Virus record (IMG/VR): IMGVR_UViG_3300023174_004352
Coordinates: 4,888 to 68,887 of that record
DNA length: 64,000 bases
Strand: one strand, 5' to 3'
Origin: a virus
Positions 20,304 to 53,128 of this stretch are shown here, in pieces. The notes beneath the pieces were generated by a model. The model ran no database searches. It was not told the DNA's origin and worked only from the letters and a program-made list of their open reading frames with translations. Both the position numbers and the translations under genes were made by a program. The stretch's first letter is position 1. Every line of letters starts with the position of its first letter.

Positions 20304-21284
20304 ATGATAGCCAATTTTCAAACAATACCATTTGAATCAATCGTACGATTTGGACAACGCACAATGTTATCCAACCCATTATTTTCTACAAGCTGGATAT
20401 TGGGCCGCTTCTGTAATTACAATTGTTCCTATTGCTGGCCCTACGCTAGAAGTGATAAACTTGATCATCAGGATTTTGAAACGTATATCCGTACTATTGA
20501 TGAAATCAAACGGCAAGCAAGGGCCAACGGGTTTAATCAATTCCACTGGAGCTTCAGCGGCGGTGAACCAACTGCTTACAAACAGTTATTGGATTTAATC
20601 AAACATCTAGACGAATTAGAATCTACGTATCAAAGTGTACACATGACTACCAATTTAAGTCCGGGAAGCAAATGGTGGAACACTTGGTGCCGCAATACAG
20701 AGATGTTACAACGTAGAAGTATCACTGCCAGTTTTCACGATGAGTTTGCTCGCGAACAAGAATTTGGCGACAAGTGTTTACAGTTGCAATACGAACTGGT
20801 ACACGTTACAATCAACCAAGTAATGGTGCCAGAAAAGTTTTATGAACTGTATGAGCGTATGGAACGCTTTCACAAACGTGGAATCAATGTCACTCTCAAA
20901 CCACAAAGCAATCCCACAGCGTCTGGCATAGTAGACGGATACACTGAAGATATGATAGACAAGATGCAGACTGGATTTCCACAACGTGCAAACGGCGAGG
21001 ACACCTATCAGATAGCATTGTATGACGCCGATGGCAAAGAATATCTATTTGATCAAGCAGAAAGATTTAATGCCTTTGGATTTAACAAATTTCAAAACTG
21101 GACTTGTAATTCAGGATACCAAAGTGTTATAATAAGAAGTAATGAAGTAAAAAGATCGTATAGTTGTCATGATCAAATCCTTGGAACATTAGACGGAGGA
21201 TTTGAATTATTCAAACAGCCAACTAAATGTATAACACCCAACTGTGTTAGTAGTGCTGACAGTAAGATACCAAAATGCAAATAG
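20304..21284 (+). CDS. Radical SAM enzyme (twitch-type C-terminal Cys)
   Basis: CNYNCSYC, SGGEP, C-terminal Cys cluster. Confidence 0.92.
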   Translation: MIANFQTIPFESIVRFGQRTMLSNPLFSTSWILGRFCNYNCSYCWPYARSDKLDHQDFETYIRTIDEIKRQARANGFNQFHWSFSGGEPTAYKQLLDLIKHLDELESTYQSVHMTTNLSPGSKWWNTWCRNTEMLQRRSITASFHDEFAREQEFGDKCLQLQYELVHVTINQVMVPEKFYELYERMERFHKRGINVTLKPQSNPTASGIVDGYTEDMIDKMQTGFPQRANGEDTYQIALYDADGKEYLFDQAERFNAFGFNKFQNWTCNSGYQSVIIRSNEVKRSYSCHDQILGTLDGGFELFKQPTKCITPNCVSSADSKIPKCK

Positions 21285-21865
21285 ATACAGAACACTTACA
21301 CTATTGGATGCAAGCCATCCGCCAAAGTCCAGATCCGATACGTACCATGGATGCCTTTTGGTCAGGACAACTCAAAAGCAAAGAATGGTTGATTACCAAC
21401 TTACGTAAGAATGTAAACAAGTTTGTCAGTATAGATATTCACGGTGGCTGGGTAGGAGTGCTGGCCAGTATGTTATTTCAAAGCGATATCTATGTCAACA
21501 ATATCCGTAGCATTGATATTGATCCCAGTTGTGAACCTATTGCTACCATGATGAATAAGCAAGAAGAAATGGCAGGCAAGTTTAAAGCCGTAACTGCTGA
21601 CATGTGCGAGATTCGAAGCGATGCCGATGTTGTTATCAATACCAGTTGCGAGCATATCACGCAAGACCAATACGACCTATGGCTGTCAGGTATGCCCCAT
21701 AACAGTCTATTGGTATTGCAAAGTAACAACTATGACATTCCAGAACATGTTCGTACAGCAAACAGCCTAGATGAATTCAAAGCACAATGCGGTATCAATG
21801 TGCTATGGGCCGGAGAACTAGAGTTACCGTTATACAAAAGATGGATGATCATCGGAAAACAATGA
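21275..21865 (+). CDS. Class I SAM-dependent methyltransferase-like protein
   Basis: IHGGWVGVL, SIDID, TADM, INTSCEH motifs. Confidence 0.7.
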   Translation: MQIDTEHLHYWMQAIRQSPDPIRTMDAFWSGQLKSKEWLITNLRKNVNKFVSIDIHGGWVGVLASMLFQSDIYVNNIRSIDIDPSCEPIATMMNKQEEMAGKFKAVTADMCEIRSDADVVINTSCEHITQDQYDLWLSGMPHNSLLVLQSNNYDIPEHVRTANSLDEFKAQCGINVLWAGELELPLYKRWMIIGKQ

Positions 21866-50550: not shown

Positions 50551-52457
50551 AACATAATGTATATGTATTGAGTTTTAGCGGGTGGAATGACTTCATTCCG
50601 GTCCTCTGGCCAAGTGCAAAAACACACTACGAGTTATATGGCAACTATCCAGAAAAATATAACTGGGTATTGCCCACGGTTGAATTTTATAGAGACATCC
50701 AAGAAATCAAAGATGAGATCAGCAAGAACCCACCGTCATTGTTTGGTGTGAGTTTGTATGTTTGGAATTATGAAAAGAGTCTTGCCATCTGTCGTTGGGT
50801 TAAAGAAACTTGGCCTGACTGTATTGTAATGACCGGCGGTCCGCATCAATACTTCAAGCATCACGGAGATTGGTTTAAGACTCATTGGTTTATTGATGCT
50901 AGTCTACCTAGCGAAGTCTACGGAGAGATAGCCATCACTGACATTCTCAATAATTACGAGAAAGGCAAAGTTAAATGGAATGCTGTTGAACAGATGGTAT
51001 ATCCTAGCAAGGATAAGAACATGGTTCTTCGAAGCCCCAAGGCAACGTACAAAAGAGACTTCGTATGGAATTTCTCATCTTTTGACACGCAGTATTCAGC
51101 AATAAAGCAGTACAGTGATTGTTACTACAGTAAATTCCCTAATGGTGCATTACACTCAAAGATAGAAACCACTCGCGGTTGTCCATATGAGTGTACCTTC
51201 TGCGACTGGGGCGGTGGTGTTGGCACCAAAGTAATTTTAAAAGATCTCGATTGTGTTAAACGTGACATCGACATACTGTTGGCTTGTGCCCCTACTAGCA
51301 TTTATATCTGCGATGCCAACTTTGGTATAAATCGAGACAGAGATGTTGCCATCGTACAATACATAGCCGATAAAAAACAAGAATCAAAAGATCCAAATTT
51401 TCCTAATGTGCAGTACGGTGGCTTTGCCAAAACTAACAAACACTTTGACACACTAAAGACTATATTCACTATAGAAGCTGAAAACGGCCTATCACAGGTT
51501 TATAAAATTTCACAGCAGAGTTTCAATGAAGATATTTTAAAAAATGTCAAACGCACTGACCTACGTGCTAACGAACATTTTGAGCTTGCAGAGTTTATGC
51601 GTACTACTTACGGGTACGAAGCCACGGTTGAATTGATTATGGGATTACCAGGAATCACTACAGACATATGGTACACAGAGTTTGATAAGCCTTATGAATG
51701 GAATACTCTTGTTAGAGCCTATGAATGGTACTTGCTCCCAGAGGCTGAAAGTTTTGATATCAAATATAGAAATGAGTTTGGAGTAGAAACTGCCAAGAAA
51801 TGGTTTAATAGAGAAGAATACACTATACCCTCGGAGGTAGTAGTTGGCGGCAAATCGTTTACTAGAGATGACTATAAAGAAATGATGATGACCTATACTT
51901 GGTACATCTTCTTTATGCAAAGCGGTGTATACAAATACACCATTAAAGATATACTAGAAAAAAATCAAATTAAATTTGGCGAGTTCCTTAAAAGATTTTA
52001 TAACCAATGCTACCCACGTTTACGATCAGCTAGTCTAGAATCATTCTCAAATTTTGAAAATCATTTAGAAGCGTTTGTCAAAGATGAAGTCAACGAAACA
52101 TTGCATAACATAACCTGGAAAAACGATCAAGGTCCCGACATACTGCATTTCGTTTATTTCATTATGGAGTATTTTAAACACTTTGAAACTCTATCACCTA
52201 TCTTTGAAGATTGGCTGGTAAATGATATGCAAGGCAATGCAAAAAAATGTGCAAGTGAGTCTGCTTTAATTATCAGCGAAAAACGTATGGGTACTACTCA
52301 TTACGGATTTTTATCTAAAGTAACATATGATCTATATCGTAATGAACAAGAGTTCATTGCCGACATTTTACGATCAAGTCAATATACCTACGGCAATCTT
52401 CTTCTTGGGTCGTGGAGTATTAGCATACATCCAAAGAGTTTATGGAAGACCAAGTAA
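50544..52457 (+). CDS. Class B (cobalamin-binding-type) radical SAM enzyme
   Basis: GVSLYVWN..MTGGPH..YGE; ETTRGCPYECTFCDW; DANFG; ELIMGLPG. Confidence 0.9.
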   Translation: MVKHNVYVLSFSGWNDFIPVLWPSAKTHYELYGNYPEKYNWVLPTVEFYRDIQEIKDEISKNPPSLFGVSLYVWNYEKSLAICRWVKETWPDCIVMTGGPHQYFKHHGDWFKTHWFIDASLPSEVYGEIAITDILNNYEKGKVKWNAVEQMVYPSKDKNMVLRSPKATYKRDFVWNFSSFDTQYSAIKQYSDCYYSKFPNGALHSKIETTRGCPYECTFCDWGGGVGTKVILKDLDCVKRDIDILLACAPTSIYICDANFGINRDRDVAIVQYIADKKQESKDPNFPNVQYGGFAKTNKHFDTLKTIFTIEAENGLSQVYKISQQSFNEDILKNVKRTDLRANEHFELAEFMRTTYGYEATVELIMGLPGITTDIWYTEFDKPYEWNTLVRAYEWYLLPEAESFDIKYRNEFGVETAKKWFNREEYTIPSEVVVGGKSFTRDDYKEMMMTYTWYIFFMQSGVYKYTIKDILEKNQIKFGEFLKRFYNQCYPRLRSASLESFSNFENHLEAFVKDEVNETLHNITWKNDQGPDILHFVYFIMEYFKHFETLSPIFEDWLVNDMQGNAKKCASESALIISEKRMGTTHYGFLSKVTYDLYRNEQEFIADILRSSQYTYGNLLLGSWSISIHPKSLWKTK

Positions 52458-53128
52458 AAGAATTTTACGGAGAAATTTGTTTTCCGGGACTATACTCTAT
52501 CGAGGATTTAAAATTCTACGATGCCGAATTAGTGAATCGGTATTTGCAAATCTATGACTATGTGGTAGGCGGGTCAACCTGCGTCCTTGACATTGGGTGT
52601 GGCAGCGGCTTTATTACAAATTTTTTAGCAAGGCGGCACCCGCATGTTAAATTTTATGCTATTGATTTTAGCACAAGTATACGATATGCTAAATCGTTTG
52701 CAGAGAAACACAATATCAATAATGTAACATGGATTGAAGCAGATTTTTTAACCTACAAGTTTAGTCAAGAATTTGATTGTGTGATTTCAAATGGAGTTGT
52801 GCATCACATGCCCGACTATACTGTTGCTGTGAAGAAGATAAAAAAACTATTATTGCCCCAGGGAAAATTAGCAATAGGGTTATATAACAAATATGGTAAA
52901 TTGGCCAAGAAAGTATTTCCGATTACCTATGTCAACAAAACATTATTTTTAGATCAAGAAAGAGCACCGTTTGAAATGAGTTTTTCAAATCAAGAAGTAC
53001 TAGATCTATTTCCAGAATTTGAGGTGCTTAAAATACATCCAGGTTATAAAAATTCTAAAGTGAATCTTTATAACCTGTTGAATTTCAAAAACGGCGGACT
53101 CACCGTTTACGTGTTTAGTTCAAGTTGA
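52442..53128 (+). CDS. Class I SAM-dependent methyltransferase
   Basis: VLDIGCGSG, AIDFS, FDCVISNGVVHH, LLPQG. Confidence 0.9.
   Translation: MEDQVKEFYGEICFPGLYSIEDLKFYDAELVNRYLQIYDYVVGGSTCVLDIGCGSGFITNFLARRHPHVKFYAIDFSTSIRYAKSFAEKHNINNVTWIEADFLTYKFSQEFDCVISNGVVHHMPDYTVAVKKIKKLLLPQGKLAIGLYNKYGKLAKKVFPITYVNKTLFLDQERAPFEMSFSNQEVLDLFPEFEVLKIHPGYKNSKVNLYNLLNFKNGGLTVYVFSSS

Follow-up and report, generated by a model that had tools for sequence, protein, structure and literature searches.

Phage regions that hold several radical S-adenosylmethionine (rSAM) genes are already in print, with no function assigned to them in the accessible parts of the reports (PMC2853527, PMC7029224, PMC12390700). As far as those parts go, the Campylobacter phages CP220 and CPt10 have 11-12 rSAM genes each, some of them in a central module that is exchangeable (PMC2853527), the host recognition clusters (HRCs) of pelagimyophages gain rSAM cassettes (PMC7029224), and the 295-kb Aeromonas phage 332-Vera has eight rSAM genes in its largest structural/tail-fibre cluster (PMC12390700). 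Cyanomyophages are described, likewise in the accessible text, as having several 2-oxoglutarate (2OG) oxygenases together with lipopolysaccharide (LPS) gene clusters (PMC3037559). Here we analyse a 64,000-nucleotide stretch of virus DNA, called the window below, which comprises bases 4888-68887 of the 68,887-base IMG/VR record IMGVR_UViG_3300023174_004352. The record, with a CheckV completeness of 19%, is probably a fragment of a T4-like jumbo phage, and positions 20304-53128 of the window hold an island of enzyme genes that includes ten rSAM genes. We take this island to be the local, unusually large form of a tailoring island found across a clade of T4-like jumbo phages whose genomes measure ~350-390 kb. 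Our preferred reading, held tentatively, is that other enzymes make an acceptor, which the island modifies by sugar- or aminocyclitol-type tailoring.

Forty-two abutting or overlapping open reading frames (ORFs) fill the island, and frequent strand switches divide them into ~17 small cassettes (Table 1); this agrees with the ~40 contiguous enzyme genes described in an initial annotation of the same DNA. We screened the island proteins with Pfam and NCBIfam models and by all-versus-all BLASTP within the island. As that annotation had stated for polyketide synthases, non-ribosomal peptide synthetases and transporters, the 42 ORFs encode neither of the two synthase types, nor any other large synthase, nor a membrane protein. 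A hydrophobic 19-mer occurs in none of the island proteins and in 3 of the 82 proteins of the whole window, all three beyond the island.

All ten rSAM genes of the initial annotation are intact and keep the CxxxCxxC motif. Nine exceed the PF04055 cut-off in Pfam (20304, 21787, 24299, 26595, 28938, 29908, 31453, 32516 and 34759); the tenth, 50544, reaches 23.4 bits against a cut-off of 29.5 and is recognised by a KedN5-type B12 rSAM C-methyltransferase model. BLASTP among the island proteins and shared domain matches resolve four paralog families. Family A (20304, 28938, 29908) is STM4011/viperin-like, with cysteine-rich C-termini seen by eye only; family B (21787, 31453) resembles twitch/SPASM models below the cut-off; and the N-terminal-twitch (N_Twi) family (24299, 26595, 34759) passes the NF033640 N_Twi_rSAM cut-off of 170 bits. 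The fourth group, 32516 and 50544, is held together by common B12-binding and PF04055 matches, the former weak, with no mutual BLASTP match. Eight genes had been described as twitch/SPASM-type, a label that holds for the three NF033640 members, lies below the cut-off for the two of family B and gives way to an STM4011/viperin-like assignment for the other three; the two cobalamin-type genes stand, both with weak B12-binding matches. In seven N_Twi sequences C32, C50, C51, C108 and C111 are invariant together with C166, C170 and C173. We know of no characterised member of NF033640, whose name reflects architecture only.

Relatives of the island are widespread among environmental phages. At least 119 IMG/VR stretches encode an ortholog of 24299, and a wider protein collection, with contigs of up to 387,418 bases, gave 5,294 relatives at E 1e-10 or better out of 8,000 scored. 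For conservation counts we kept 80 of the 119 stretches, in which the 24299 orthologs are 60-86% identical and lie on contigs of up to 269,730 bases, and scored a gene as recurrent when a match covering at least half of the query lay within 10 kb on either side of the ortholog. By this measure 26595 recurs in 80 of the 80 loci, 20304 and 28938 in 77 each, 21275 in 71, 25760 in 50, 47855 in 46 and 23602 in 38; at 50% identity or more, 24299 is found in all 80, 21275 in 71 and 20304 in 62. Genes 27850 to 46486 show mostly weak or no recurrence, and AcpS is found in none of the loci. Conserved co-occurrence among relatives had been named in the initial annotation as a check on its pathway proposal, and with core gene content co-occurring in 50-80 of the 80 loci the proposal is not refuted for the core.

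In three mapped relatives the island occupies the same slot, with the borders 19895/18816 on one side and 54895/58119/62419 on the other. Its size is 27.8 kb in the relative G001 and about 25.7 kb in G002, and both order and content of the genes vary among the window, G001, G002 and G005; in five relatives searched, each has 6-14 rSAM matches. The island combines a conserved core with swappable accessory cassettes of two to five genes; the core comprises rSAM families A and B, the N_Twi rSAMs, the methyltransferase-like protein, the compact PLP enzyme, the QueC-like PP-loop enzyme and AspH/2OG oxygenases. G001 is a 269.7-kb contig (CheckV 76%) with a T4-type capsid gene (PF07068 Gp23, 269 bits). 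Its island has no fibre gene at the border and includes an amidinotransferase/SpeD/rSAM module that in the window stands as a satellite (58810-61796, minus strand) 5.7 kb to the right of the island. Full-length epimerase/dehydratase genes are present in G001 and G005, all beyond the island. Among isolate phages only distant matches turned up (RsoM2USA, Vibrio K566/K567 and Campylobacter CP220-like phages). A 23.7-kb portion of the island had no megablast match in isolate phages, the AspH-like 45265 had no tblastn match in phages, and a search for related loci in viral contigs based on 36594 found none. In Vibrio phage K566 (locus L082), a run of rSAM and hypothetical genes at 14971-23758 is followed at 24984-25433 by a gene annotated as a PagP lipid A acylation protein. 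Three short contigs binned in one Crocinitomicaceae metagenome-assembled genome (MAG; L083, L086, L151) carry N_Twi genes 26-78% identical to those of the phage; they may be misbinned phage contigs and are a weak host hint at best.

A cellular counterpart of the core exists on chromosomes. Scanning one genome per species, we found 79 bacterial loci, 61 of them in Bdellovibrionota as assigned from record titles. These loci combine tandem N_Twi arrays with homologues of 20304 (~50% identity), 21787/31453, 21275, 25760 and 58810. The NF033640 cut-off is passed in 5 of 5 genomes that host such rSAM loci and in 0 of 14 control genomes. In Bdellovibrio sp. HCB2-146 (L084), a 36.5-kb stretch holds ten CxxxCxxC genes and six genes similar to glycosyltransferase family 2 (GT2), and contains 5 of the 11 PF00535 matches of the genome. 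Its proteins include homologues of 44551 (40% identity, in a 222-aa protein), 21275 (37%) and 25760 (36%, two copies), as well as of 30860 and 58810, and 20304 is 52% identical to a Bdellovibrio sp. protein. The pattern recurs in a second locus, L135, where two GT2 genes are accompanied by weak QueC-like and AspH-like matches. Adjoining the HCB2-146 stretch, at 17248-21315 (minus strand) of L084, lies a gene for a 1355-aa repeat protein that resembles tail fibres and has a chaperone-like C-terminus. We considered this neighbour as support for fibre decoration and discarded it, as only 2 of the 78 other bacterial loci have such a gene and its position may be due to chance.

We propose that the acceptor is most likely of carbohydrate type, because in the cellular loci the homologues of the core are surrounded by GT2 genes and lie beside a GT-C-like protein, and because the repertoire includes a DegT-family and a StrB1-like enzyme. 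Lacking GT2, flippase and exporter genes, the phage would tailor a unit or glycan assembled by the host or by other phage enzymes. The initial annotation had likewise argued for a multi-step pathway acting on a pre-existing acceptor, and with no scaffold synthase, exporter or recognisable precursor in the locus, such an acceptor is the simplest assumption. In the scheme that we suggest, (i) the rSAM enzymes would perform C-H abstraction chemistry (oxidation, epimerisation, deoxygenation, C-methylation) on a carbohydrate or aminocyclitol unit; (ii) the Fe/2OG enzymes would hydroxylate it; (iii) the DegT and class-III enzymes would introduce amino groups, and amidination would fall to the StrB1-like enzyme; (iv) the kinase-fold proteins would phosphorylate it; and (v) acyl carrier protein (ACP), AcpS and the hydrolase-like proteins would attach acyl groups or take them off. 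The final carrier could equally be the virion fibres or the envelope of the infected cell. The adjacent fibre gene had been taken to favour virion decoration, an argument we no longer use: 53115 is absent at the island border of G001 and only 29% identical in G002. In literature searches we found no characterised phage pathway of rSAM/oxygenase/ACP composition, in keeping with what the initial annotation had said. One paper combining Bdellovibrio, radical SAM and glycosyltransferase was found, unrelated by its title and abstract.

Several observations weigh against this proposal. GT2 genes accompany rSAM arrays in only 15 of the 44 bacterial loci of at least 15 kb by a local hidden Markov model (HMM), the same approach detects GT2 in 0 of 81 phage loci, and PF00535 stays below the cut-off in 5 of 5 phage records. 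The GT-C call for an eight-transmembrane protein adjoining the HCB2-146 stretch comes from one PMT-annotated homologue among nine. The DegT gene 44551 is of half length and, among five phage records searched, is found in that of the window only, and the ACP module was found in no fetched relative locus. Sequence searches of PDB with the N_Twi profile gave as best matches a lipid enzyme, GDGT-MAS (E 3e-7), as well as two peptide maturases, and the SPASM/twitch rSAM and AspH enzymes characterised so far mostly have peptides or proteins as substrates. For 18 of the 42 ORFs no Pfam family reaches E 0.01, and the chemistry proposed is read from gene families.

The alternative that survives best, although we regard it as unlikely, is post-translational modification in the manner of peptides that are ribosomally synthesised and post-translationally modified (RiPPs) or proteusins, with rSAM enzymes crosslinking, epimerising or C-methylating, and AspH enzymes hydroxylating, the residues of a fibre or of an unrecognised precursor. 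Peptide-maturase models are indeed frequent among the sub-threshold NCBIfam matches of all the rSAM families, seven genes are AspH-type, fibre-like genes lie at 1-7644, 12533-13432 and 53115-54788, the motif TAAAT[AT] described below also stands 5' of the one at 12533, and a Thr/Gly-rich 172-aa protein is encoded at the left border. Against this, no conserved small ORF resembles a precursor (the sole highly conserved one being the basic 19895), although no systematic small-ORF search was made inside the island; Pfam scans of the 42 ORFs found no RRE/PqqD, leader protease or transporter family, and there is no membrane protein. Moreover, the DegT, class-III aminotransferase, amidinotransferase, ACP and short-chain dehydrogenase/reductase (SDR) families act on small molecules, and the cellular homologues stand among GT2 genes.

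A second alternative is a free aminoglycoside-like or polyamine-derived small molecule made in the infected cell, for example as an inhibitor directed against competitors or host defence. The enzyme set resembles aminocyclitol pathways in its StrB1-like amidinotransferase, its DegT and class-III aminotransferases, its twitch and B12 rSAM enzymes, its ACP and its kinase fold, and a SpeD-like gene adjoins the amidinotransferase gene. We nevertheless consider a free product quite improbable: the Pfam scans of the island, in which 18 ORFs have no family, revealed neither a synthase for a cyclitol or sugar scaffold nor a GT4-type transferase, an exporter or other membrane protein is lacking, and the pairing of GT2 with a GT-C-like protein in the cellular loci suggests a polymer or envelope acceptor.

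The island might also hold no single pathway, being a hypervariable depot of independent auxiliary genes with unrelated host targets. Its 17 strand-switching cassettes, many with a promoter-like motif of their own, its differing gene order and the poor conservation of the middle part (29.9-46.5 kb) among relatives would suit such a depot. We think this very unlikely, as the core genes occur together both in the 50-80 phage loci counted above and again in the Bdellovibrionota loci, and even the accessory genes 44551, 30860 and 58810 have homologues in the bacterial island. Least probable of all is hypermodification of phage DNA, nucleotides or tRNA (of the 7-deazaguanine or thymidine type), to which the flanking ThyX and basic DNA-binding-like protein, the QueD-like gene at 11394, the QueC-like 23602 and weak QueE-model matches of the family-A rSAMs point, because the QueE and QueC matches are far below the cut-off, TGT/DpdA (PF01702) is found in 0 of 2 records (that of the window and the 269.7-kb G001, both incomplete), the same genes occur in GT2-rich bacterial chromosomal loci, and 10 rSAMs with 14 oxygenases go beyond any base-modification pathway known to us.

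Returning to the tailoring island, its second large enzyme class is the Fe/2OG oxygenases. The initial annotation had counted ~14 of them, 11 of which have tool support; the other three (36594, 41941 and 46486) are called on a motif only. Seven of the class are AspH-type, six by PF05118 matches and 48528 by BLASTP to AspH paralogs. For 47058, an AlphaFold2 (AF2) model built with 11 orthologs (pLDDT 85) matches PHD2 and AlkB at E ~3e-5 with a TM-score of only 0.33, and H176, D178 and H232 are invariant in the family. By hhalign, with thin alignments, 36594/41941, 46486 and 47058 were not linked to the AspH or Oxy_3 families.

Among the remaining enzymes, the BioA-like and DegT-like aminotransferases and the third pyridoxal phosphate (PLP) enzyme of the initial annotation hold up, 38864 and 44551 by Pfam and 25760 by fold: an AF2 model of the latter (11 orthologs, pLDDT 85) has Foldseek matches in PDB to HisC, CobD and ACC synthase at E ~1e-7, with K187 invariant in the family. 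Both ACP and AcpS are present as described, the ACP on the minus strand; precomputed PF00550 matches extend to five ACP relatives that are 86-92% identical, and a plus-strand ORF at 41743 is spurious. The QueC-like ATPase stands as a weak PP-loop match with SGGxDS and CxxCxxC in 23602 (SGGADS and a C-terminal C-x2-C-x2-C are invariant in 12 orthologs), its similarity to QueC itself lying far below the cut-off. One of the two methyltransferases, 52442, is found by Methyltransf_31, and the other, 21275, is a motif seen by eye that no tool reports. Similarly, one of four SGNH calls has a weak Pfam match, the other three and the alpha/beta hydrolase and GNAT calls being motifs or leads only. Two protein-kinase-fold proteins, 36050 and 47855, had been overlooked; their family profile matches the protein kinase TTK at E 3e-7. 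PDB profile searches with the SGNH-like set, the GNAT-like family and the families of 25760, 47058 and 23602 gave no useful match.

Table 1. Genes of the island, of its left border and of the satellite module, in order of position in the window. For the five genes of the cassette 46486-49968, the position is that of the cassette.
Feature	Position	Strand	Evidence
2OG-FeII_Oxy_3 oxygenase, immediately left of island	18816-19358	-	PF13640 30.2 bits
rSAM family A, core gene	20304-21284	+	PF04055 49.9 bits; CxxxCxxC at residue 37
Rossmann/SAM-methyltransferase-like, core gene	21275-21865	+	GxGxG-like motifs by eye; weak DUF6626 match; no Pfam family
rSAM family B (twitch/SPASM-like)	21787-22923	+	PF04055 33.8 bits; N_Twi and StsB-like matches below cut-off; paralog of 31453
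AspH-like oxygenase	22904-23590	-	PF05118 E 2.4e-4, 21.4 bits, just under cut-off; homologue in Bdellovibrio island
PP-loop ATPase, QueC-like	23602-24336	+	PF01171 E 2.9e-4, below cut-off
N-terminal-twitch rSAM	24299-25720	-	NF033640 397 bits
Compact fold-type-I PLP enzyme	25760-26611	+	AF2 fold
N-terminal-twitch rSAM	26595-27866	+	NF033640 320 bits; SPASM match at residues 9-69
AspH-like oxygenase	27850-28425	+	PF05118 27.2 bits
AspH-like oxygenase	28415-29032	+	PF05118 36.9 bits
rSAM family A	28938-29924	+	PF04055 51.8 bits; paralog of 20304
rSAM family A	29908-30897	-	PF04055 41 bits; paralog of 20304
Short SDR-like	30860-31429	-	adh_short and Epimerase E ~1e-3, below cut-off; N-terminal similarity to 40869
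rSAM family B	31453-32523	+	PF04055 34.2 bits; below-cut-off PhpK-like/lipid B12-rSAM-like matches listed jointly with 32516
B12-binding rSAM	32516-34069	+	PF04055 69.8 bits
SGNH-like	34035-34766	-	motif only
N_Twi rSAM in four-gene cassette 34035-37268	34759-36057	-	NF033640 276 bits
Kinase-fold protein in cassette 34035-37268	36050-36619	-	family profile
HxD...H cupin-like	36594-37268	-	motif only; weak Atlas AspH lead
Three 2OG-FeII_Oxy_3-type paralogs (37280, 37828, 38325)	37298-38879	+	PF13640 E 0.002 for 38325; mutual identity 37-43%
Class-III aminotransferase	38864-40042	+	PF00202 131 bits; best PDB matches BioA, ornithine aminotransferase
SGNH-like	40023-40841	-	GSxxxxG and C-terminal His by eye; no family match
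SDR-like	40869-41450	+	N-terminal similarity to 30860
AcpS	41447-41746	+	PF01648 55.9 bits
Acyl carrier protein, 78 aa	41718-41954	-	DSL motif; precomputed PF00550
Cupin-like	41941-42609	-	40% identical to 36594; motif only
SGNH-like	42636-43415	+	Lipase_GDSL E 0.016
GxSxG hydrolase-like (alpha/beta)	43396-43941	+	GxSxG by eye
AspH-like oxygenase	43935-44567	+	PF05118 42.5 bits
Short DegT/DnrJ/EryC1-family PLP enzyme, 224 aa	44551-45225	-	PF01041 71.2 bits; SFHxxK by eye
Two AspH-like oxygenases	45265-46505	+	PF05118 42.4 and 29.3 bits
Cupin-like 46486, in five-gene cassette	46486-49968	-	HxD...H motif; weak Atlas lead
2OG double-stranded beta-helix oxygenase 47058, same cassette	46486-49968	-	AF2 fold
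Kinase-fold protein 47855, same cassette	46486-49968	-	family profile
AspH-like oxygenase 48528, same cassette	46486-49968	-	BLASTP to AspH paralogs
SGNH-like 49138, same cassette	46486-49968	-	motif only
Possible GNAT	49888-50550	+	Atlas lead only
B12 rSAM	50544-52457	+	KedN5-like model 136 bits, E 1e-39
Class-I methyltransferase	52442-53128	+	Methyltransf_31 76 bits
Amidinotransferase, satellite module	58810-59862	-	StrB1 (1bwd) E 4e-22; HsvA E 6e-18
Unassigned gene, satellite module	59859-60287	-	
SpeD-like, satellite module	60277-60633	-	phrog_3125 SAM decarboxylase
11th radical SAM, satellite module	60630-61796	-	rSAM phrogs

The left flank of the island encodes a 2548-aa protein whose domains also occur in cyanophage, pelagiphage and Campylobacter phage tail fibres. 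It also holds a UvdE UV-damage endonuclease (9168-10193, minus strand), ThyX, a QueD-like 6-pyruvoyl-tetrahydropterin synthase (11394-11843, minus strand; phrog_2389 match at E 9e-41) and, 9 kb from the island, a PmgQ-like glycosyltransferase; a PDB profile search with the 10507 glycosyltransferase gave no useful match. An Fe/Mn superoxide dismutase (8322-8882, minus strand; Sod_Fe_C 79 bits) lies ~11 kb from the island, with TAAAT[AT] upstream as in the cassettes, and might protect Fe-S enzymes. At the left border, the 172-aa protein (19355-19873, minus strand) has a Thr/Gly/Asn-rich middle with TTGTG-type runs and a helical C-terminus, and few relatives at ~44% identity. Next to it, 19895-20089 (minus strand) encodes a basic Lys/Ala-rich protein of 64 aa that is 77-92% identical in relatives, beyond the identity of the adjoining enzymes. 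By eye it looks like a DNA-binding protein of the histone-H1/Hc1 type, and on account of its basic Lys/Ala-rich composition it was ruled out as a RiPP precursor. A 107-nt tRNA-like element at 20135-20241 (minus strand) fits the full tRNA model at 23.7 bits against a gathering score of 29, with no ARAGORN call; it could be a tRNA interrupted by an insertion, or else a degenerate copy. The right flank begins with the Mtd_N fibre gene 53115-54788 (minus strand) and has five tRNAs. This fibre gene contains two 117-nt tandem repeats at 53824-54057, and no template/variable repeat pair of the diversity-generating type was seen within 53-58 kb.

Promoter motifs at the island genes had been noted before, and a positional excess of TAAAT[AT] in front of start codons supports them. 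The motif stands 8-15 nt 5' of the ATG at 19 ORFs, 15 of which are island ORFs, and an ORF of 80 aa or more follows 34 of its 162 copies, against an average of 12.3 and at most 22 for random positions. The longer form WTAAATAT shows no overall enrichment in the window (13 occurrences versus 14.8 expected), and just the placement relative to start codons is non-random. TAAAT[AT] recurs at the island cassettes of G001, where the 80 nt upstream of the T4-type capsid gene do not contain it; the late timing suggested for this promoter-like motif is conjectural. TTGACA-N17-TATAAT-type sites lie 5' of the flank genes 13449, 16675, 55694 and 57375. We note that the gap between motif end and ATG is 2-9 nt, mostly 4-6 (e.g. 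23591, 25731, 25750, 40852, 40858, 45236, 45254), which leaves too little room for a Shine-Dalgarno sequence, while flank genes have AGGAG-type sites. This spacing hints at leaderless transcripts from the motif.

If the tailoring proposal is correct, this abundant environmental phage lineage gives half of a 69-kb stretch to uncharacterised carbohydrate chemistry, with three rSAM families of no known reaction. The island is also relevant to a long-standing puzzle, the presence of many 2OG oxygenase and "LPS" genes beside the fibres of large T4-like phages. The coexistence of oxygen-labile rSAMs with oxygen-requiring 2OG enzymes, and with a superoxide dismutase 11 kb away, is noteworthy. A bolder extension, which we regard as doubtful, is that jumbo phages and predatory Bdellovibrionota share an undescribed glycan chemistry: arrays of N_Twi and other rSAMs and Fe/2OG enzymes would rebuild amino or guanidino sugars at unactivated carbons, the product would be displayed by both on attack fibres or surfaces, and cassette exchange would diversify it for recognition of prey or host. 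The Bdellovibrio genome with the island, which has no MAG label, unlike most of the other loci, may be a genetically tractable entry point.

How does the island compare with known systems? To CP220 and CPt10 it is tied by the family-A rSAM 28938, whose only relatives in isolate phages are found there (22-28% identity, 8 records); those phages differ in having ~175-kb genomes and another host, and the accessible text mentions neither an expansion of oxygenases nor an ACP nor a connection to glycan genes (PMC2853527). The HRCs of pelagimyophages and cyanomyophages, and the 2OG oxygenase and LPS gene clusters of the latter, are alike in being large and non-syntenic, set among T4-like fibre genes, with rSAM cassettes and several 2OG oxygenases, as far as these are covered in the accessible text (PMC7029224, PMC3037559); here too fibre-like genes flank the island, the 2548-aa protein of the window shares fibre domains, and G001 has a T4-type gp23. 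In the same text those islands are rich in glycosyltransferases, whereas the present one has just the PmgQ-like enzyme 9 kb off and no GT2. Phage 332-Vera, likened here by the accessible description, belongs to the Chimallinviridae and is not T4-like (PMC12390700). Aminoglycoside and aminocyclitol enzymes share classes with the island (amidinotransferase, DegT, class-III, twitch/B12 rSAM and ACP), with significant sequence similarity for the amidinotransferase alone, and, unlike their clusters, the island lacks both a scaffold synthase and pathway glycosyltransferases. BtrN, GenK and BtrI are names from aminocyclitol tailoring; StrB1 (PDB 1bwd) was identified by search. The islands of Bdellovibrionota (36.5 kb in HCB2-146) share the rSAM families, the methyltransferase-like, PLP, short DegT, amidinotransferase, AspH-like and QueC-like genes; the cellular form has GT2 and a GT-C-like protein, whereas the phage form has many more oxygenases, an ACP and AcpS.

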